The notes under the pieces are model-generated. The model saw nothing but the letters and a program-made list of their open reading frames with translations, was not told where the DNA came from and made no database searches. The position numbers were made by a program, and so were the translations under genes. A stretch of DNA of 64,000 nt from Candidatus Rokuibacteriota bacterium (GTDB lineage: Bacteria > Methylomirabilota > Methylomirabilia > Rokubacteriales > CSP1-6). The number at the start of each line of letters is the position of its first letter. Positions within the stretch are counted from its first letter, which is position 1. Of the stretch, positions 1,528 through 56,152 are shown one piece after another. The stretch is from positions 15,224-79,223 of the forward strand of contig JACPIQ010000012.1 of the NCBI GenBank assembly GCA_016188005.1, written 5' to 3'.

Positions 1528-2903
1528 CCCTCCTCGCGAGGTCTCCCGACCTCACTGAGCGGGAGCCGGATGATCATCGTGGTCCCGCTCCCGAGCTGGC
1601 TCTCGACATCGATGCTGCCCTCGTGCCCCTGCACGATCCGGTGAGCGATGGCCAGGCCGAGGCCGACCCCGCTGGGCCGCGTCGTGAAGTACGGATCGAA
1701 CACGTGGGGAAGAACGTCCTCGGCAATCCCGGGCCCCGTGTCCCTGACGCTCACCTCGGCCCAGCCGCCATCCCGTCGCGTCGTCACCGCGAGGGCCCCC
1801 CCGTTCGGCATGGCCTGTAGCGCGTTGATCATCACGTTGAGGAACACCTGGGAGAGCTGTCCCTCGTCACCGAGGATCCTCGTGAGCGCGGGATCGAGAC
1901 GGCTCTCGATGGCGACGCCGTGGCTGGCAGCCTCGAATGCGACCAGGCCGAGCACACGCTCGACGAGGCCAGCGATCTCCACCGGCTTGAACTCGGGCAC
2001 CAGGGGCTTCGAGAAGCGGAGAAAGTTCTCCACGATTCGATCGAGGTGCTGCAGCTCGGATCGGAGGACGTCGAAATACCCGCGGATCGCGGCCCCGGGA
2101 GGCGGCCCGGGCGCGAGCTCGGCCTGGAGCAGATGGAGGTTCAGGCCCAGGGCGTGGAGCGGGTTCTTCACTTCGTGGGCGACGCCGGCAGCGAGCGTCC
2201 CCAGCGCGGCCAGCTTGTCGGATCTCCGGAGCTGCAGCTCGAGCCGGCTCACCTCCGTGATGTCGCGGAGCAGCACCACCAGGCCGTCCGTCTCGCCGGA
2301 CTCGTCCCGCAGGTCCGACGCCGAGGCGCGCACGGTCGCCCGCCGGCTTCCCTCCGCCGTCAACGCGAAGTCGCGCTCCTGATGAAGGCGATCTCCTGCG
2401 AGGGCGCCGAGGACCCACGCCGTGAGCTCCGGGACGGCCTGCAAGGCCTCGCCCACGGGCCGGCCCCGGATCGCGGAGGCCCGGAGACCCAGCAGGCGCT
2501 CGCCCGGGCCGTTCAGCGAGGTGACGGCGCCGCCCGCGTCGAGGGTCAGGACGCCCGTCGGGATGCTCTCCAGGATGTTCCGCATCAGGCTCTTGACGCG
2601 CTCGAACGTCTCGGCGACAGCCCGGTAGTTCTGGTAGGCGCCGAACAGGACGATGCCGATGGCGGCGAGCACGAGGAGCGCCGCGAAGGTCGCGACCAGT
2701 TCCGGCCAGCTCAGCCCCCGGACGAGGCTGGAGGGATCCGGTGGGGGAACGGGAAGTCCCGAGGCCAGGAGCCGGTGCCGCTCGTACTGGATCCCGACCG
2801 CGACCCCGGCGGCGAGGAGGAGGGCGACGAGGGCGAAGGCCGAGAGCGGCAACCAGACGGGGACCGATCCGAACGAGACACGCGGGGGGCCGGGGCGAAA
2901 CAT
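1524..2903 (-). CDS. sensor histidine kinase (HAMP/PAS, HisKA, HATPase_c)
   Basis: Two N-terminal hydrophobic segments. H-box HEVKNPLHAL. C-terminal ATPase boxes (DTGPGI, GLGLAIAHRIV). Start overlaps the regulator gene start by 4 nt, a classic two-component operon. Confidence 0.85.
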   Translation of the reverse strand: MFRPGPPRVSFGSVPVWLPLSAFALVALLLAAGVAVGIQYERHRLLASGLPVPPPDPSSLVRGLSWPELVATFAALLVLAAIGIVLFGAYQNYRAVAETFERVKSLMRNILESIPTGVLTLDAGGAVTSLNGPGERLLGLRASAIRGRPVGEALQAVPELTAWVLGALAGDRLHQERDFALTAEGSRRATVRASASDLRDESGETDGLVVLLRDITEVSRLELQLRRSDKLAALGTLAAGVAHEVKNPLHALGLNLHLLQAELAPGPPPGAAIRGYFDVLRSELQHLDRIVENFLRFSKPLVPEFKPVEIAGLVERVLGLVAFEAASHGVAIESRLDPALTRILGDEGQLSQVFLNVMINALQAMPNGGALAVTTRRDGGWAEVSVRDTGPGIAEDVLPHVFDPYFTTRPSGVGLGLAIAHRIVQGHEGSIDVESQLGSGTTMIIRLPLSEVGRPREEG

Positions 2904-3142: not shown

Positions 3143-4360
3143 ATGGATCTCAACTACACCGCCGAGGACACCGCCTTCCGCAAGAAGGTGCGCGCCTGGC
3201 TCGAGCAGAACCTGCCGCGGACGCCGATCCGCACGCTCGACGAGCGGCGCGCCTGGCACCGCAAGCTCTGCGAGGCCGGCTACCTGGGCATGGGCTGGCC
3301 GAAGGCGTACGGGGGAGGCGACGCGCGGCCCATGGAGCAGGCCATCGTGGCCGACGAGCTGGCGCGGGCCTGCGCCCCGGCTCCCACGAACGCCCTCGGG
3401 CTCGGCATCGTGGGCCCCACCATCGTGGTCCATGGCACCGAGGCGCAGAAGAAGCGGTACCTCAGGAAGATCCTCATGGCGGAGGAGCTGTGGTGCCAGC
3501 TCTACTCGGAGCCCAACGCGGGCAGCGACCTGGCCGCGCTCAGGGCCAGCGCCGAGGACAGGGGCGACCACTTCATCGTCAACGGGCAGAAGACCTGGAC
3601 CAGCGCCGGCTCCATCGCCGACTGGGGCCTGCTCCTGGCCCGCACCGACCCGGCCGTGGCCAAGCACAAGGGCATCACGTGCCTGCTCATGAACATGCGC
3701 CAGCCGGGCGTCGAGGTGCGGCCGCTCAAGCAGATCACCGGGTCGTCGGAGTTCTCCGAGGTGTTCATGACCAACGCCCGCGTCGAGAAGTCGGATCAGG
3801 TCGGCCGGCTCGGCGAGGGCTGGGCCATCGCCCAGACGACGCTCGGCTACGAGCGCGGGGGCCGCGCGCTGGCCCGCATCACGAGCTACGCCTCGCAGTA
3901 CGGCCGGCTCGTGGAGGCGGCCCGGCGGATCCGGCGGCACGGCCGTCCGCTCGTCGACGATCCCATCATCCGCCAGAAGCTCGGGCGCATCTGGGCCGAG
4001 CTCGAGGTGGAGCGCTACGGCGCGCTCCGGATGCTCACGCTGCTCGAGCGGGGCGAGCACCCCGGCGCCGGCGGCTCCCTGAGCAAGCTCTCCTACTCGG
4101 AGTTCGAGAAGCGCTTCATGGAGCTCGCGATGGAGATCCTGGGGCCCTACGGCCAGCTCACCGAAGGCGCGCCCGAGGAGCTCCGGCTCGAAATCGACAC
4201 CGCCGTGGGCGAGCAGGGGACCTGGGCCTACGCCTTCCTCTGGTCGCGCGCCGGCACGATCTACGCTGGCTCCTCGGAGATCCAGAAGAACGTCATCGGG
4301 GAGCGCATCCTGGGGCTCCCCAAGGAAACGCGCGCCGACCGCGTCGGAGGCGCCCGATGA
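3143..4360 (+). CDS. acyl-CoA dehydrogenase family protein
   Basis: 405 aa. ACAD N-terminal/middle/C-terminal pattern (WPKAYGG...YSEPNAGSDLA...GQKTWTSAG). Stop overlaps the next start (ATGA). Confidence 0.85.
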   Translation: MDLNYTAEDTAFRKKVRAWLEQNLPRTPIRTLDERRAWHRKLCEAGYLGMGWPKAYGGGDARPMEQAIVADELARACAPAPTNALGLGIVGPTIVVHGTEAQKKRYLRKILMAEELWCQLYSEPNAGSDLAALRASAEDRGDHFIVNGQKTWTSAGSIADWGLLLARTDPAVAKHKGITCLLMNMRQPGVEVRPLKQITGSSEFSEVFMTNARVEKSDQVGRLGEGWAIAQTTLGYERGGRALARITSYASQYGRLVEAARRIRRHGRPLVDDPIIRQKLGRIWAELEVERYGALRMLTLLERGEHPGAGGSLSKLSYSEFEKRFMELAMEILGPYGQLTEGAPEELRLEIDTAVGEQGTWAYAFLWSRAGTIYAGSSEIQKNVIGERILGLPKETRADRVGGAR

Positions 4361-5484: not shown

Positions 5485-6722
5485 AGCGAGCGCCGCGCGA
5501 GACGACATCTCCAGGCCGTCGGCACCCCCTCGCCCGCCGGGGGGGAGCCAAGGGGACAGGGGCCCGGGGCGAGGGGGGCCCGCTCAGGGGCGTGCGGGTG
5601 ATCGACCTCACCTCCTACATCGCCGGCTCCTACGCGGCCATGATGCTGGCCGACCTCGGGGCCGACGTCATCAAGGTCGAGTCGCTCGAGGGCGACTCCT
5701 TCCGCGAGCTGCCGGGCTTCTTCGGCTGGAACCGCGGCAAGCGCTCCATCGCCGTCAACCTGAAGACACCGGACGGCCGCGCCATCGCCCACCGCCTCGC
5801 GCGCACCGCGGACGTGGCGATGGAGAACATGCGCCCGGGCGTGGCCGACCGGCTCGGCGTGGGCTACAGGGACCTGCGCCGGCGGAACCCGCGGATCATC
5901 TACTCCTCCGCCACCGCCTTCGGCTCCGAGGGGCCGTACCGCGACCGCCCCGGCTTCGATCCCCTCGCCCAGGCCATGGGCGGGGTCATGGCGATCCAGG
6001 GCTTCGGGGGGCCGCCGCAGTACATGCGCATCGCGGTCACCGACTACTACACGGCCGCGCTCTCCTGCCAGGCGATCCTGGCCGCGCTCTTCGCCCGCGA
6101 GCGCACCGGCCGCGGCCAGCGCGTCGAGACCTCGCTGCTCCAGGGCGTGCTGGCGCTGCAGTCCGGCAACGTGGTCGACTATGCGGGCAAGCAGCACGTC
6201 TTCCGCGACAACCCGACCTATCGCCTCTATCGCGCGGGCGACGGCGAGTGGTTCTTCCTCGCCTGCGGCAACCAGGCCTTCTGGGGCAAGCTCTGCCAGG
6301 TCATCGGCCGCCCCGACCTCATCGACGACCCGCGCTTCGGCTCCTGGCTCCTGAGACTGGACAACCGCGAGGCGCTCATGCCGCTGCTGGAGGCGACCTT
6401 CGCCTCCCGGCCGCGCGCCGAGTGGCTGAAGGTCCTCGCGGACCACGACATCCCGGCAGCGGGCACCCGGACGCTGCTGGAGTGCATGGACGATCCCGCC
6501 GTGCAGCAGCTCGGGATGATCGTCACCTATGACCACCCGGAGGTCGGCCGGCTGCGCATGATGGGCCCGCCGCTCCGCTTCTCCGACACCCAGGCCCCCG
6601 ATGCCGGCCCGCCGCCCGTGCTGGGCCAGCACACCGACGAGGTGCTGCGCGAGGTCGGCTTCGGCCCACGCGCCGTCGCGGGTCTTCGCCGCCGCGGCAT
6701 CGTCGCAGGGCAGCGGCCCTGA
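5481..6722 (+). CDS. CoA-transferase family III (CaiB/BaiF-like)
   Basis: GVRVIDLTSYIAGSYAAMMLADLGADVIKVE signature and conserved Asp region (AVTDYYTAA). Start overlaps the ACAD stop. Confidence 0.8.
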   Translation: MKRAPRETTSPGRRHPLARRGGAKGTGARGEGGPLRGVRVIDLTSYIAGSYAAMMLADLGADVIKVESLEGDSFRELPGFFGWNRGKRSIAVNLKTPDGRAIAHRLARTADVAMENMRPGVADRLGVGYRDLRRRNPRIIYSSATAFGSEGPYRDRPGFDPLAQAMGGVMAIQGFGGPPQYMRIAVTDYYTAALSCQAILAALFARERTGRGQRVETSLLQGVLALQSGNVVDYAGKQHVFRDNPTYRLYRAGDGEWFFLACGNQAFWGKLCQVIGRPDLIDDPRFGSWLLRLDNREALMPLLEATFASRPRAEWLKVLADHDIPAAGTRTLLECMDDPAVQQLGMIVTYDHPEVGRLRMMGPPLRFSDTQAPDAGPPPVLGQHTDEVLREVGFGPRAVAGLRRRGIVAGQRP

Positions 6723-6871: not shown

Positions 6872-7735
6872 GTGACCGAGCTGGCCGAGGCGCTCCGCAG
6901 CGAGGACCGCCCGCCGACCGAGCGGGCGGCTCAGCGGCTCGTGGCGGCCGTGGCCTCGGCCCTCGGTATGCCCACCGTGAGGGTGCAGGTGCTGGCGGCC
7001 CGCCCCCACGCGAAGTGGGGAGAGCTGCACGGGCTCTACGAGACGGGGCGGCGGCCCGGCCAGCCGCCGCTCATCACGCTCTGGATGCGGACGGCCCGGC
7101 AGAAGCGGGTCGTCGCGTTCCGGACCTTTCTCCGCACGCTGCTCCACGAGATGGGGCATCATCTGGACTACACGCTCTTGCGGCTCGGCGACTCGCTCCA
7201 CACGCAGGGCTTCTACCAGCGCGAGTCGCATCTCTTCCACCAGCTCGTCACCGACGAAGGTCAGGCCATGGCGACGATCGAGGAGCAGATGGCGCGGATG
7301 GGGCGGACAGCGGACGACTTCTCGGCGGCCATCAACGGGGTGCCGGAGGCGACCCTCGCCCGGCGGCCCGACCCGAAGAACTGGGCGCCGAAGGAGATCG
7401 TCTGCCACATCCGGGACACCGAGGAGGGGTTCATGGGGCGCTTCCAGGCCATCCTCGCCATGGAAGAGCCGAGGTTCCTCCCCGTGGAGCCCGACCGCTG
7501 GGCCACCGAGCGCCAGTACCTCCGCAACGATGCCGCCGAGGCCCTGGCCGCCTTCCGGGGGCGGCGCGCCGAGACGCTGGCCTTCCTGCGCCATCTCGCC
7601 CCGGATCAGCTGGAGCGGGCCGGAGTCCACGCCACGCGCGGGCGCATGACGATCAAGGACTTCATCGGCATGATGGCGTGGCACGACGACAACCACCTCG
7701 ACCAGCTCAAGCGGGCCCTCGACGGCAAGCCGTAG
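6872..7735 (+). CDS. two-domain protein: N-terminal HExxH-motif metallo-hydrolase-like domain fused to C-terminal DinB_2 (DinB/YfiT-like) domain
   Basis: N-terminal half carries LLHEMGHHLDY (an HExxH zinc-binding-type motif). C-terminal ~155 aa (from internal Met near 7268) has a DinB-like His pattern (HIRDTEE...WHDDNHLDQL). There is no stop between the two halves. The start is uncertain because the reading frame is open upstream to ~6725 with no ATG. Confidence 0.5.
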   Translation: MTELAEALRSEDRPPTERAAQRLVAAVASALGMPTVRVQVLAARPHAKWGELHGLYETGRRPGQPPLITLWMRTARQKRVVAFRTFLRTLLHEMGHHLDYTLLRLGDSLHTQGFYQRESHLFHQLVTDEGQAMATIEEQMARMGRTADDFSAAINGVPEATLARRPDPKNWAPKEIVCHIRDTEEGFMGRFQAILAMEEPRFLPVEPDRWATERQYLRNDAAEALAAFRGRRAETLAFLRHLAPDQLERAGVHATRGRMTIKDFIGMMAWHDDNHLDQLKRALDGKP

Positions 7736-7740
7736 CGGCC

Positions 7741-7887
7741 CTTGGGGTCAGATCTTGCAAACCGACACGGAGCCCCGGCCCCAGTGCCATTACCCTCCGA
7801 GCGGCACACGATGACCAGTCCCTGAGCCGTAGGCCAACGCAAGACCGCACTCCTGCCAATGTCGGAATGCAAGACCTGACCCCAAGG
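7741..7887. repeat. ~145-bp palindromic MITE-like repeat, copy 1 (25-bp terminal inverted repeats GGGGTCAGRTCTTGCAWWCCGACA)
   Basis: The two ends are reverse complements of each other (GGGGTCAGATCTTGCAAACCGACAC ... GTCGGAATGCAAGACCTGACCCC). A second copy lies at 8420-8580, and the ends are conserved between copies while the middles diverge. Confidence 0.55.
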
Positions 7888-8292
7888 TCAGCAGTACAGC
7901 CTCCCGGTCTGGATGGCCCGGTGGTGGTGGAAGAGCGTCCACTCGAGCGCGCGGGGCGTCACCCGCCGCTCGCGGGCGTGGCGGCGCAGCTCACGCAGGT
8001 AGAGGAGCCACTGCTCCACCGTGAAGCCGCGGCCGCGGGGGTTGACGCCCACGGACCGGAGCGCGAAGAGCAGCTGCCAGACGCGGATGTCGAGCACGCC
8101 GTAGCGGATGGGATCGAGCAGCGTCAGGATCGCCGAGGCCATGGCCACGCTGACGCCGCGGAGTCCCACCAGCAACTGCATGCGGCGGCGCTCGCTGCGC
8201 GTCGCCAGGACGTCGCGGGAGACCGCCCGGATCGTGGCCGCCCGATTGCGCCGGCACTGCGGGAGCGCCCGCGGGCTCTTCCAGCGGCACAT
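7888..8292 (-). CDS. small helix-hairpin-helix (HhH) motif protein, EndoIII-like fragment, function unknown
   Basis: HhH-like LVGLRGVSVAMASAILTLLDPIRYGVLDIRVWQLL. Start taken at the internal ATG (MCRWKSP) preceded by GGAG. Alternative TTG start near 8412. The stop codon lies inside repeat copy 1, and the gene is exactly bracketed by the two repeat copies. Confidence 0.4.
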   Translation of the reverse strand: MCRWKSPRALPQCRRNRAATIRAVSRDVLATRSERRRMQLLVGLRGVSVAMASAILTLLDPIRYGVLDIRVWQLLFALRSVGVNPRGRGFTVEQWLLYLRELRRHARERRVTPRALEWTLFHHHRAIQTGRLYC

Positions 8293-8419
8293 GGCGAGGA
8301 ACTCCGCGCGGCTGAAGCCGCTGGCGCTCCTCACGTGGCGGAGGCGGCGGATGAGCGCCGCGGTGTCGGGGTCCTCCTCGACGATCGGCAGGTGCCCGAG
8401 GAGGCCACGCAAGCCCCGG

Positions 8420-8580
8420 CCCCGCCCGGGGTCAGGTCTTGAAAAGCGACACGTGGCCCTGGCCCCGACGCTGCTGCGCCCCCGCTCCAGCTTGATGAAC
8501 AGCGCCGTCACCGATACCACGATGCAAGATCGGGCCCCTGCCGATGTTGGAATGCAAGACCTGACCCCGACGGTCAGGTG
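8420..8580. repeat. ~160-bp palindromic MITE-like repeat, copy 2
   Basis: GGGGTCAGGTCTTGAAAAGCGACACG ... GTTGGAATGCAAGACCTGACCCCGACGGTCAG. Same terminal inverted repeats as copy 1. The stop of the downstream LLM gene falls in its right arm. Confidence 0.55.
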
Positions 8581-9536
8581 GCCGCGCCGGCTTCGAGGGT
8601 CGGAAGATAGTGCCGCGCGTCGGGGAAGCCGATGGGGCGGATGGCCGGCAGGGTGACGCCGGCCTCGCGGTGGGCGGCGACGAAGTCCTGGAGCGCCCGG
8701 TAGTCGCCGACGGCGCCCAGCGCCGCCGCGAGGCGATCGGGCACGGCCTCGGGGCCGGGGGCGCGGTCGTAGGCGGCGAGCTCGGCCGCGAAGCCGCTCC
8801 CGACCAGCATGGCGCGGTAGAAGGGCAGCGCGAGATAGCGCGTGAGCTCCGCCTTGAAGAGCGCCGTCGCCGCCGTCCGCTCCACCGTGAGCGCGGCGGG
8901 CACCGCCGCCACCACCTCGAAGCCGTCCGGCGGCTTCCCCGCGCGCGCGCGCCCGCCCCTGATCGCGGGCAGCGCCACGCGGCGGATGTACTCCGGCGCG
9001 CAGAGCCAGAGCACGACCCCATCGGCGATCTCCCCGGCCAGCTCGAGCATGCGCGGCCCGAGCCCGGCCAGGAGCAGGGACGGCGCGGCCGGCAGCCGTG
9101 GAAGCCCGCTCTGCCACGCCACGCGGTAGCGAGCGCCTGCGTGCTCGACGCGCCCCGTGAGGGCGCTGCGCAGCACGGCGACGTATTCCCGCATCACCTC
9201 GAGGGGCTCGCCCATGGGGAGCCCCAGCGCCTGCTCCATGGACGCGCGGTGGCTCACGCCGATGCCGAGACGGAGACGTCCGCCCGTCACGTCCTGGAGG
9301 GTGAGCGCCTCCTGGGCCAGCAGCACCGGGTGCCGCGGGTAGATCGGGACGACACCCGTCCCGAGCCCCACGTGCGGCGCGACCTGCCCGTAGGCGGCGA
9401 GGACCAGGAACGCATCGCGCCCCAGGCCATGCGTGGTCCAGAGGCTCTCGTAGCCCAGCCCCTCCGCGCGAGCGGCCAGCGTCACCGCGGCGCCGAGATC
9501 GGCGCCGGAGTTGAGGAAGGCCGCGATGCGCGCCAT
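8574..9536 (-). CDS. LLM-class (luciferase-like) flavin/F420-dependent oxidoreductase
   Basis: Real start MARIAAFLNS, internal to a longer ORF. TIM-barrel LLM pattern (GLGYESLWTTHG...LGIGVSH...). Confidence 0.8.
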   Translation of the reverse strand: MARIAAFLNSGADLGAAVTLAARAEGLGYESLWTTHGLGRDAFLVLAAYGQVAPHVGLGTGVVPIYPRHPVLLAQEALTLQDVTGGRLRLGIGVSHRASMEQALGLPMGEPLEVMREYVAVLRSALTGRVEHAGARYRVAWQSGLPRLPAAPSLLLAGLGPRMLELAGEIADGVVLWLCAPEYIRRVALPAIRGGRARAGKPPDGFEVVAAVPAALTVERTAATALFKAELTRYLALPFYRAMLVGSGFAAELAAYDRAPGPEAVPDRLAAALGAVGDYRALQDFVAAHREAGVTLPAIRPIGFPDARHYLPTLEAGAAT

Positions 9537-55170: not shown

Positions 55171-56152
55171 GCGGCCGCCGCGCTCCCCCGCCGCCGCGGC
55201 GGCGGGGGAGCGCGCGAGCCAGCAGCCCCCCAATGGCCTGACGCAGGTGTCCCCGCCCCTCGGGGCCCTGGCAGACCACCACCCCCGACACGGCCAGCAC
55301 TCCTCCCAGGAGCTGAAGCGGCGCCAGCCGCTCGCCCAGGATCAGCCAGGACAGGAGCACCCCTGAGAGCGGGACGAGATTGGTGAACACCGCCGTCCGC
55401 CCCGCCCCGACCCGCCTGAGCCCGACATTCCACCACAGGAAGGCGAGCACCGTGGCGCCCACCGCGAGGTAGCCGAGGCCGCCCCAGGCCTGGGCGCCCG
55501 CGGCGGCCAGCCCGGGCCAGGGTTGCTCCAGCAGGGCCACCGGGATCAGGAGCGCCGTGCCGATCAGGATGCCGTAGGTGAGGGTGGCGGCATTGGAGAG
55601 CCGCTCCATCGTCACCTTCGAGACGTACGAGTAGATCCCCCAGCACGACCCGCCAAGGAAGAACAGGATGTCGCCCAGCAGGGTGGCCCTCCCCACGCCG
55701 ACGGCCAGGCGTCCCGGCTGCACCAGGAGCGCGACGCCCGCCACGCAGAGCAGCATCCCGACCACGAAGCCAGAAGGAAGGCGGTCGCCGCCCACCCGTG
55801 CCGCCACGAGGTTCGTCGACAGCGCGCTGGCGGTGGACGGGATCAGCGCGCCATGCGCCGCGGGGGCGAACCGCAGGGCCGAGAAGAAGAAGGCGTGGTT
55901 GAGAAAGGTCCCGAGGAGGCCCACCCAGAGGAGCAGAACGAGATCGCGCCGGGCGAGGGAGCGTGGGTCGGGGAGCTGCCGCCGGAAGATCGCGACGAGC
56001 AGCACCCCGGCGAGCCCATAGCGCAGAACGCCCGCGGTGAACGGCGCGATGTCGCGGACGACGAGCTTGCCCGCCACCGCCGTGGCGCCCCAGAGAAGTG
56101 CCGTGAGCAGGATCAGGGCGTAGACGCGCGCGAGGGGCTCTCTGGATCTCAT
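55151..56152 (-). CDS. EamA-family (DMT superfamily) transporter
   Basis: 10-TM duplicated EamA architecture. Start at MRSREPLARVYALILL. Confidence 0.8.
   Translation of the reverse strand: MRSREPLARVYALILLTALLWGATAVAGKLVVRDIAPFTAGVLRYGLAGVLLVAIFRRQLPDPRSLARRDLVLLLWVGLLGTFLNHAFFFSALRFAPAAHGALIPSTASALSTNLVAARVGGDRLPSGFVVGMLLCVAGVALLVQPGRLAVGVGRATLLGDILFFLGGSCWGIYSYVSKVTMERLSNAATLTYGILIGTALLIPVALLEQPWPGLAAAGAQAWGGLGYLAVGATVLAFLWWNVGLRRVGAGRTAVFTNLVPLSGVLLSWLILGERLAPLQLLGGVLAVSGVVVCQGPEGRGHLRQAIGGLLARALPRRRGGGGARRPPTGAGT

Follow-up and report, generated by a model that had tools for sequence, protein, structure and literature searches.

Two hairpin-forming repeats beside a small gene of a Rokubacteria genome are probably non-autonomous TIR dimers of TIRtrons

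The window, i.e. the whole 64-kb stretch of DNA that was analysed, includes two hairpin-forming elements. Each of them is most probably (probability roughly 0.78) a non-autonomous TIR dimer of a TIRtron, spread in trans by a TIRYT transposase via single-stranded DNA. The same ends flank TIRYT genes in other genomes, and the copies of the window therefore correspond to the 'dimer' TIR repeats. The pair of hairpins is thus assigned to a little-studied class, the TIRYT inverted repeats, which are far more widespread and more conserved in sequence than the 8-nt motif of the literature suggests. As a kind, the TIR repeats of TIRtrons are already known, and the locus in the window is an ordinary instance of them. 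The new observations are modest: a 140-nt subfamily present in Rokubacteria, a conservation of 14–24 nt at the ends, and a 5' layout common to 11 units. The family also offers a test of the unproven link between Y1 transposases and dispersed inverted repeats.

The elements, their arms and the adjoining genes are the following:

7744–7883, no strand assigned: copy 1, a TIR-dimer element of 140 bp which belongs to the 140-nt subfamily of Rokubacteria, with the converging stops of the DinB_2 and HhH genes on its two sides
7744–7767, plus strand: left arm of copy 1, GGGGTCAGATCTTGCAAACCGACA, its outer end fitting the motif GGGGWSAS
7860–7883, plus strand: right arm of copy 1, TGTCGGAATGCAAGACCTGACCCC, including the exact 20-mer found across phyla
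8428–8568, no strand assigned: copy 2, a 141-bp TIR-dimer element, between the stop of the LLM gene and the 5' end of the HhH gene
8428–8451, plus strand: left arm of copy 2, GGGGTCAGGTCTTGAAAAGCGACA, the more degenerate of its two arms
8545–8568, plus strand: right arm of copy 2, TGTTGGAATGCAAGACCTGACCCC, including the exact 20-mer
6872–7735, plus strand: DinB_2 family gene, convergent neighbour, with its stop 8 nt from copy 1
7888–8412, minus strand: enclosed HhH gene, coordinates given with the TTG start, for a putative HhH protein that is small, distantly OGG-like and recorded as a conserved hypothetical of Rokubacteria
8574–9536, minus strand: LLM (luciferase-like monooxygenase) gene, 320 aa, upstream of the HhH gene, with its stop 5 nt from copy 2

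The two hairpin copies with inverted ends, already recognized in the preliminary description, were borne out by the analysis, their borders being corrected to the positions above according to the conserved ends. Both copies begin with GGGGTCAG.TCTTG... and end with ...GGAATGCAAGACCTGACCCC, and the outer end of every arm fits the motif GGGGWSAS, as GGGGTCAG at 7744–7751 and 8428–8435 and as its complement at 7876–7883 and 8561–8568. In short form the element ends can be written as CAAGACCTGACCCC and the arm terminus as ...CTGACCCC. The arms are complementary at 21 of 24 positions in copy 1 (33 nt at 85% with the flanks counted in) and at 19 of 24 in copy 2; the left-arm consensus proposed earlier thus fits copy 2 poorly. 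The copies are 69% identical to each other over the whole element and about 56% in their interiors, and the 140-nt subfamily to which they belong includes also a third, internal partial end, GCAAGACC. The 20-mer GGAATGCAAGACCTGACCCC had three matches in the window with at most three mismatches, against 0.00 in 100 shuffles, and neither a search with the 14-mer core nor a window-wide search for inverted repeats detected any copies in the 64 kb besides these two. Both are in the same orientation, in adjacent spacers. For the sole pair in the window, adjacent positions of this kind would be somewhat unlikely under random placement.

Long hairpins were predicted from both strands of both copies, with z-scores of -4.0 to -6.5 for RNA and -3.6 to -4.7 for DNA (copy 1 hairpin -4.7 to -6.5), so that the fold check suggested beforehand gave stable structures. 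Single arms folded at shuffle level (z -0.38 and -0.64), and the idea that a single arm forms a REP-like hairpin was rejected as it folds no better than shuffles. Contrary to the first reading of the sequence, the stop codons of the neighbouring genes are not within the elements: that of the HhH gene (7888–7890) is 4 nt outside copy 1 and that of the LLM gene (8574–8576) 5 nt outside copy 2.

The exact 20-mer was searched from contigs representing one genome per species, and it was found at no fewer than 120 loci in many bacterial phyla, the count being a lower bound. The hosts include Rokubacteria/Methylomirabilota, Thermoleophilia, Gaiellales and other Actinomycetes, many Beta- and Gammaproteobacteria, Deferrimicrobiaceae, Nitrospira, Aminicenantales, Thermotogae, Planctomycetales and Verrucomicrobiia, and the G+C content of the host sequences ranges from 42 to 73%. 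At least nine loci with the repeat are present in one Rokubacteria MAG (MGBV01). The commonest form among the loci listed is a hairpin dimer, two inverted arms with a variable loop between them; the 92 dimers counted were 40–150 bp long, mostly 40–89 bp, some of them perfect palindromes of 40–49 bp, and also single ends occur. The 140-nt class of dimers, including both copies of the window, was among the loci listed confined to Rokubacteria-type sequences. Direct repeats abutting the 92 dimers were at chance level, 70 dimers having none against 67 expected from a shuffled control, and no target motif was seen; the check for target-site duplications proposed in the preliminary description thus gave none beyond chance. 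A blastn search of a 49-bp palindrome against plasmids gave only one spurious partial match, and no paper reporting the end sequence itself was found in the literature search. The repeat family is accordingly dispersed, non-autonomous and hairpin-forming, and lacks target-site duplications, and the earlier description of a dispersed hairpin repeat with TIRs was in this respect confirmed.

The transposase was found beside the repeat in other genomes. In at least 11 related loci the repeat is present as two inverted repeats around a gene for a HUH/Y1 transposase of ca. 280 aa with a C-terminal HTH. A Y1 transposase gene adjoins the repeat in L090, L017, L011, L052, L066, L038 and L068, and the repeat is inverted at both ends of the gene in L090, L017, L068, L038, L131, L132 and L135, all from other genomes; several Proteobacteria have a single arm only, adjoining a coding region. 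The protein translated beside the repeat (ca. 280 aa) has the HUH motif NHYHL and the tyrosine region RYVVLNP. It matches Pfam Y1_Tnp (1.6e-13) and, weakly, HTH_23/HTH_28 at its C-terminus (residues 244–276), while its score against NCBIfam REP_Tyr_transpos, 70.9 bits, is below the cut-off of 80, and transpos_IS200 is matched with E = 0.009 only. The arms of the window copies share 14–24 nt with the TIRYT flanks in Proteobacteria, Thermodesulfobacteriota, Nitrospira-type and other contigs. Judged from these sequences, the repeats appear to be linked to the TIRYT class, more precisely to the RAYT-like subclass 2.1.2 with a C-terminal HTH.

The whole TIRtron unit is ca. 0.9 kb, with the TIRYT gene between GGGGTCAGGTCTTGCAWTCC... 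and its reverse complement. GGGGTCAGGTCTTGCATTCCAACA is situated ca. 30 nt before the ATG, and the stop codon is overlapped by the (T)GAATGCAAGACCTGACCCC of the 3' repeat. A metagenome pattern scan, biased towards high GC, detected eight more TIRtrons with GC 0.55–0.71, none assignable to Rokubacteria. In 11 distinct TIRtrons the 5' region has a common layout, TIR(TTGCAw) – 17/18 nt – TAnnnT – 6/7 nt – ATG, which looks like a promoter with its -35 box inside the repeat and a leaderless transposase mRNA; such a layout extending across the repeat could help to account for the strong conservation of the ends. The TIRYT protein family is very large, with no fewer than 8000 members at E < 1e-20, for which 'REP element-mobilizing transposase RayT' is a frequent name. 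The protein search seeded with the TIRYT of L135 gave a Nitrospira clade and no Rokubacteria, and tblastn with five divergent TIRYTs found no TIRYT gene in the 64-kb window, in the sampled Rokubacteria/Methylomirabilota (ca. 45) or in the Actinobacteria loci. A cognate TIRYT enzyme in the Rokubacteria lineage is thus unproven.

The names TIRtron and TIRYT come from Di Nocera, De Gregorio & Rocco 2013 (PMC3733652), who defined the ends by the motif GGGGWSAS and reported 'moderately abundant families of TIRs', in which the repeats stand alone, in dimers or in clusters. The TIRYTs were mostly placed in TnpA-Y1 subclass 2.1 by Quentin et al. 2018 (PMC6006769), with HTH_23, HTH_28 or Bac_DnaA_C tails in group 2.1.2, whose patchy distribution these authors interpreted as horizontal transfer. 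Mobilisation by TIRYT is a hypothesis in both papers, and neither reports biochemistry or an activity test of TIRYT. The present repeats agree with these TIRtrons (PMC3733652; PMC6006769) in the GGGGWSAS outer end, here GGGGTCAG, in flanking a RAYT-like Y1 transposase with a C-terminal HTH_23/HTH_28, the 3' repeat overlapping the end of the gene, and in occurring as intergenic singles, dimers and clusters with a patchy distribution across phyla. They differ in that the identity extends over 14–24 nt, instead of an 8-nt motif, in different phyla and beside TIRYTs which are only ca. 50% identical, and in that the window copies form a 140-nt Rokubacteria subfamily with the third internal partial end, a subfamily of which no report was found.

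The dimers are similar to REPIN-RAYT systems (Bertels & Rainey 2011; Nunvar 2010; Ton-Hoang 2012) in that two inverted units produce a long hairpin, in being non-autonomous, intergenic, often just 3' of genes and without target duplication, and in the link to a single-copy HUH/Y1 transposase flanked by repeats. However, a single arm is not a palindrome as a REP is, and the ends have no GTAG or CGTC tag; for these reasons the arms are regarded as TIRs and not as REPs, even though the dimer is REPIN-shaped. Also the linked enzyme, being below the REP_Tyr_transpos cut-off, differs from that of REPIN-RAYT, and while the part of the REPIN-RAYT literature at hand reports these systems as mostly vertically inherited, the present end sequence is common to several phyla.

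With IS200/IS605 the repeats would share the Y1 HUH chemistry, single-stranded DNA substrates and the lack of target duplication, and the proposed mechanism is modelled on these insertion sequences. The ends of IS200/IS605 are different subterminal hairpins and not inverted repeats, and their TnpA is ca. 130–150 aa without an HTH tail. The marginal transpos_IS200 match of TIRYT is a further difference.

Because no transposase gene is present in the window, we infer mobilisation in trans: the copies would have been spread by a TIRYT whose gene lies elsewhere in the genome or has since been lost. By analogy with IS200/IS605 and with the proposal made for REPIN/RAYT, the route would probably lead through DNA that is single-stranded at the replication fork and in which the two arms could pair into a hairpin, and a single-strand mode of transposition of this kind would leave no target duplication. 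As the copies are located 4–5 nt after the stop codons, the LLM and HhH mRNAs probably carry them at their 3' ends, folded into very stable hairpins. These might pause transcription or stabilise the transcripts, as REPs do, and such effects would then be by-products.

The history of the locus was followed in related lineages. The gene order Meth_synt_2 – 89 aa – HAD – LLM – HhH is common to three related lineages, with or without the elements, and the LLM–HhH synteny is kept in L121, L123 and L128. The relatives are as follows:

L121/L122: HhH 87% identical to that of the window, both spacers without the element
L123–L127: HhH 89% identical, orthologs of both copies present, and a 3.3-kb restriction-modification-like island between the HhH gene and copy 1
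L128: HhH about 80% identical, both spacers with a different palindromic repeat of ca. 150–180 bp, of which there are four copies in 8.5 kb

The insertions are thus common to one related lineage and missing from another. In L123 the DinB_2 ortholog is followed by the ortholog of copy 1 (6469–6609, 82.3% identical), as in the window, and the ortholog of copy 2 (2503–2643) is 95.7% identical. For comparison, the identity between the window and L123 is 88.5% at the third codon positions of LLM and 86.7% over the HhH coding sequence. Copy 1 is 84–85% identical to copies at unrelated loci of other genomes (L004 and L070), which is more than its 69% identity to copy 2.

At the site of copy 2 the element is absent from L121/L122, the whole spacer is different and there is no clean junction with the window. 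Homology between the window and this element-free relative ends directly after the LLM stop and restarts near codon 6 of the HhH gene, and where the ancestral arrangement has a 106-nt LLM–HhH spacer and a GTG start, the window has 5 nt and copy 2. Copy 2 appears, then, to have taken the place of the ancestral spacer and of the HhH start codon. Its insertion would have destroyed the original start, and the only in-frame starts left are TTG 8410–8412, 16 nt from copy 2, and GTG 8518–8520, inside it. Of the earlier statement that the HhH gene starts at the edge of copy 2 it therefore holds that the present candidates are close to or within the element, but the ancestral start itself is gone. The public record HYV93_03685 (hypothetical protein, Candidatus Rokubacteria) uses the GTG at 8518–8520, giving 210 aa, of which the first ca. 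26 residues would come from the copy 2 repeat. This model is probably over-extended into the repeat, and the annotation is flagged here for that reason.

An unlikely alternative to copy 2 as a passive insertion is that it now serves, after co-option, as the 5' region of HhH, contributing a new start or an extended N-terminus and/or a hairpin with a regulatory role between the LLM and HhH genes, or, more broadly, that pairs of dimers delimit a hot spot of gene insertion. Co-option would account for the 95.7% identity of copy 2 while synonymous sites differ by ca. 11%, and this value, from a comparison of 141 nt, hints that copy 2 may be under some constraint. As to the hot spot, one relative has the restriction-modification island inside the bracket.

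Another explanation, which is improbable, treats the elements as selected cis-acting RNAs, such as a small RNA, a 3'-UTR stabiliser, a terminator or an insulator, kept for that role and not for mobility. Very stable hairpins on the coding strand 4–5 nt after two stop codons would suit such a role, as would the greater identity of copy 2 between lineages (95.7%) in comparison to the third codon positions of LLM (88.5%), and REP-type repeats are located mostly 3' of coding regions, where transcript stabilisation or termination has been hypothesised (PMC3733652). Against this, Rfam gave nothing relevant, either for the whole window at the gathering score or for 7600–8700 at E up to 10. In the alignment of nine 140-nt copies the outer stem is invariant and the interior has no compensatory changes; only one of 43 pairs had a double change, the covariation term was unfavourable, and the substitutions break pairs. 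The structured small RNA suggested in the preliminary description is thus not supported, and neither is the transcription terminator, as the stem is not followed by a T-run and the region 7300–9000 had no T-run terminator, no promoter consensus and 0 terminator-like sites. Furthermore, the conserved part is a DNA-level end which also bounds the transposase gene, and copy 1 (82%) diverges faster than the neighbouring genes.

It is highly unlikely that the two elements of the same orientation are, as was also considered at first, borders of a mobile cassette, a composite one which would carry the HhH gene and, in a relative, the restriction-modification island. The position of the sole two copies of the 64 kb in adjacent spacers, the 3.3-kb N6_Mtase/Eco57I island of L123/L124 inside the bracket of the two elements, and the different palindromic repeat which likewise flanks the HhH gene in L128 all favour a cassette. 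But the Meth_synt_2–HAD–LLM–HhH order is unchanged whether the elements are present or not, and HhH homologues in other contexts are in tight operons without repeats, one more distant homologue among them. No HhH homologue was found at the 120 other element loci listed, so that also a general association between HhH genes and the elements was rejected. The copies represent different sublineages and, being only 69% identical, are taken as independent insertions and not as cassette borders, and the four copies of the L128 repeat in 8.5 kb indicate that such spacers are simply repeat-rich. The enclosed HhH gene appears to be a resident gene of Rokubacteria, and the alignments with relatives show the two copies as what are evidently old, independent insertions which entered repeat-prone spacers where the synteny breaks, and not as a mobile cassette.

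The term MITE-like, used for the elements at the beginning, stands in so far as they are non-autonomous and have TIRs. They resemble bacterial MITEs (e.g. Correia, RUP, Nezha) in their size, inverted ends and hairpin-forming transcripts, and differ from them in having neither target-site duplications nor a DDE parent element. A classical MITE, i.e. a deletion derivative of a DDE-transposase IS moved by cut-and-paste via its TIRs and leaving target-site duplications, is for this reason very improbable indeed, although the inverted ends of 24 nt, the small size, the numerous dispersed copies and the variable interiors would all agree with it. The chance-level direct repeats at the 92 dimers argue against a DDE-type MITE and fit HUH/single-strand transposition. 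Moreover, all full-length units between these ends encode a Y1/HUH enzyme, and no DDE gene was present between inverted GGGGTCAGGTCTTGCA ends in any locus examined. Integron-type attC sites separating gene cassettes can practically be dismissed: the elements are imperfect palindromes of attC size, each after a small gene and in the same orientation, and some Proteobacteria have ends of the same orientation 170–800 bp apart, but RYYYAAC / GTTRRRY core sites are missing from the borders (with CCCTT/AAGGT and CGCCC/GACGG as flanks), the proteobacterial end pairs are TIRYT genes and gene fragments, and the genes here are syntenic chromosomal genes.

As for the protein encoded between the TIR dimers, a PDB sequence search with its family gave no match. 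It matches Pfam PF21790 (OGG-like) weakly, under the curated cut-off, as do 13 of the 17 family members compared, which lends the HhH assignment made at first weak support and places it below the level of a curated match. Its 878 homologues are mostly 184 aa long.

Eleven distinct units in which the TIRYT gene, coding for an HUH/Y1 tyrosine transposase, is bounded by the same inverted repeats as the hairpin elements had a common layout, GGGGTCAGGTC-TTGCAw - 17/18 nt - TAnnnT - 6/7 nt - ATG. The comparison was based on loci L011, L017, L068, L090 and L129-L136 from other genomes and metagenomes. As judged from its sequence, the layout is that of a sigma-70-like promoter with the -35 box located within the inverted repeat, and the transposase mRNA of these units would then apparently be leaderless. 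The embedded promoter may be one of the reasons why the repeat is so extremely conserved.

L090 4294-4358: example of the TIRYT unit layout

Tandem arrays were found immediately beyond the outer end of the repeat in L017, L066, L026, L003, L012, L078 and L130, with the terminal 4-7 nt of the repeat (..GACCCC) and 8-18 nt of the flank making up each array unit. Such arrays were present at 8 of the 271 repeat ends, compared to 0.12% at random positions. They might have been left behind by repeated cutting and rejoining where the element ends. Also the last ~100 nt of the TIRYT gene were, together with the 3' repeat, duplicated in tandem downstream of the gene in both L090 and L017, the latter including additional 5' and 3' fragments of the gene.

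L017 about 2230-2360, minus strand: tandem array of eight units
L090 5181-5380; L017 about 3848-4010 and 2277-2556: tandem-duplicated TIRYT gene end with 3' repeat, or gene fragments

The 140-nt Rokubacteria subfamily, to which both copies of the window belong, includes a third, partial and internal copy of the end (GCAAGACCG / GCAAGATCG), which suggests that the subfamily originated from a nested or trimeric arrangement.

Window 7839-7849 and 8524-8534; columns 37-47 of A3, the alignment including 140-nt copies: internal partial end

Between the window and the syntenic Rokubacteria locus L123, copy 2 (window 8428-8568, L123 2503-2643) was 95.7% identical. This exceeds the identities between the same lineages at the third-codon positions of the luciferase-like monooxygenase gene (88.5%), in the HhH coding sequence (86.7%) and in copy 1 (just 82.3%), and therefore suggests possible constraint on copy 2. 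The public model of the HhH protein, HYV93_03685, starts at a position corresponding to a GTG inside copy 2, so that about its first 26 residues (VVSVTALFIKLERGRSSVGARATCRF...) are translated from the repeat. The model has 210 aa while the homologues mostly have 184 aa, and its N-terminus is probably either over-extended or element-derived.

Window 8413-8520, minus strand: part of the HYV93_03685 model at issue

In L128, from another lineage of Rokubacteria, both spacers beside the HhH ortholog were occupied by a different palindromic repeat of ~150-180 bp (arms ...GGGGGCCGCCACGGAAC / GTTCCGCGGCGGCCCCC...), present in four copies within 8.5 kb. In L123, and likewise in L124, the HhH stop was separated from the ortholog of copy 1 by a 3.3-kb island with three small ORFs and a gene for a 569-aa protein of the N6_Mtase/Eco57I type; this island is missing from the window.

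L128 3839-4018, 4551-4730, 6815-6994 and about 6980-7041: palindromic repeat copies
L123 3183-6469: island

Two element-bearing contigs, L031 and L102, were binned as the archaeon Nitrosotalea, yet they have 70% G+C. Because Nitrosotalea genomes are AT-rich, these contigs are probably mis-binned, and archaeal occurrence of the element is therefore not established by them.

Elsewhere in the window, positions 55179-55214 form a perfect GC-rich palindrome of 36 bp, CGCGCTCCCCCGCCGCCGCGGCGGCGGGGGAGCGCG.
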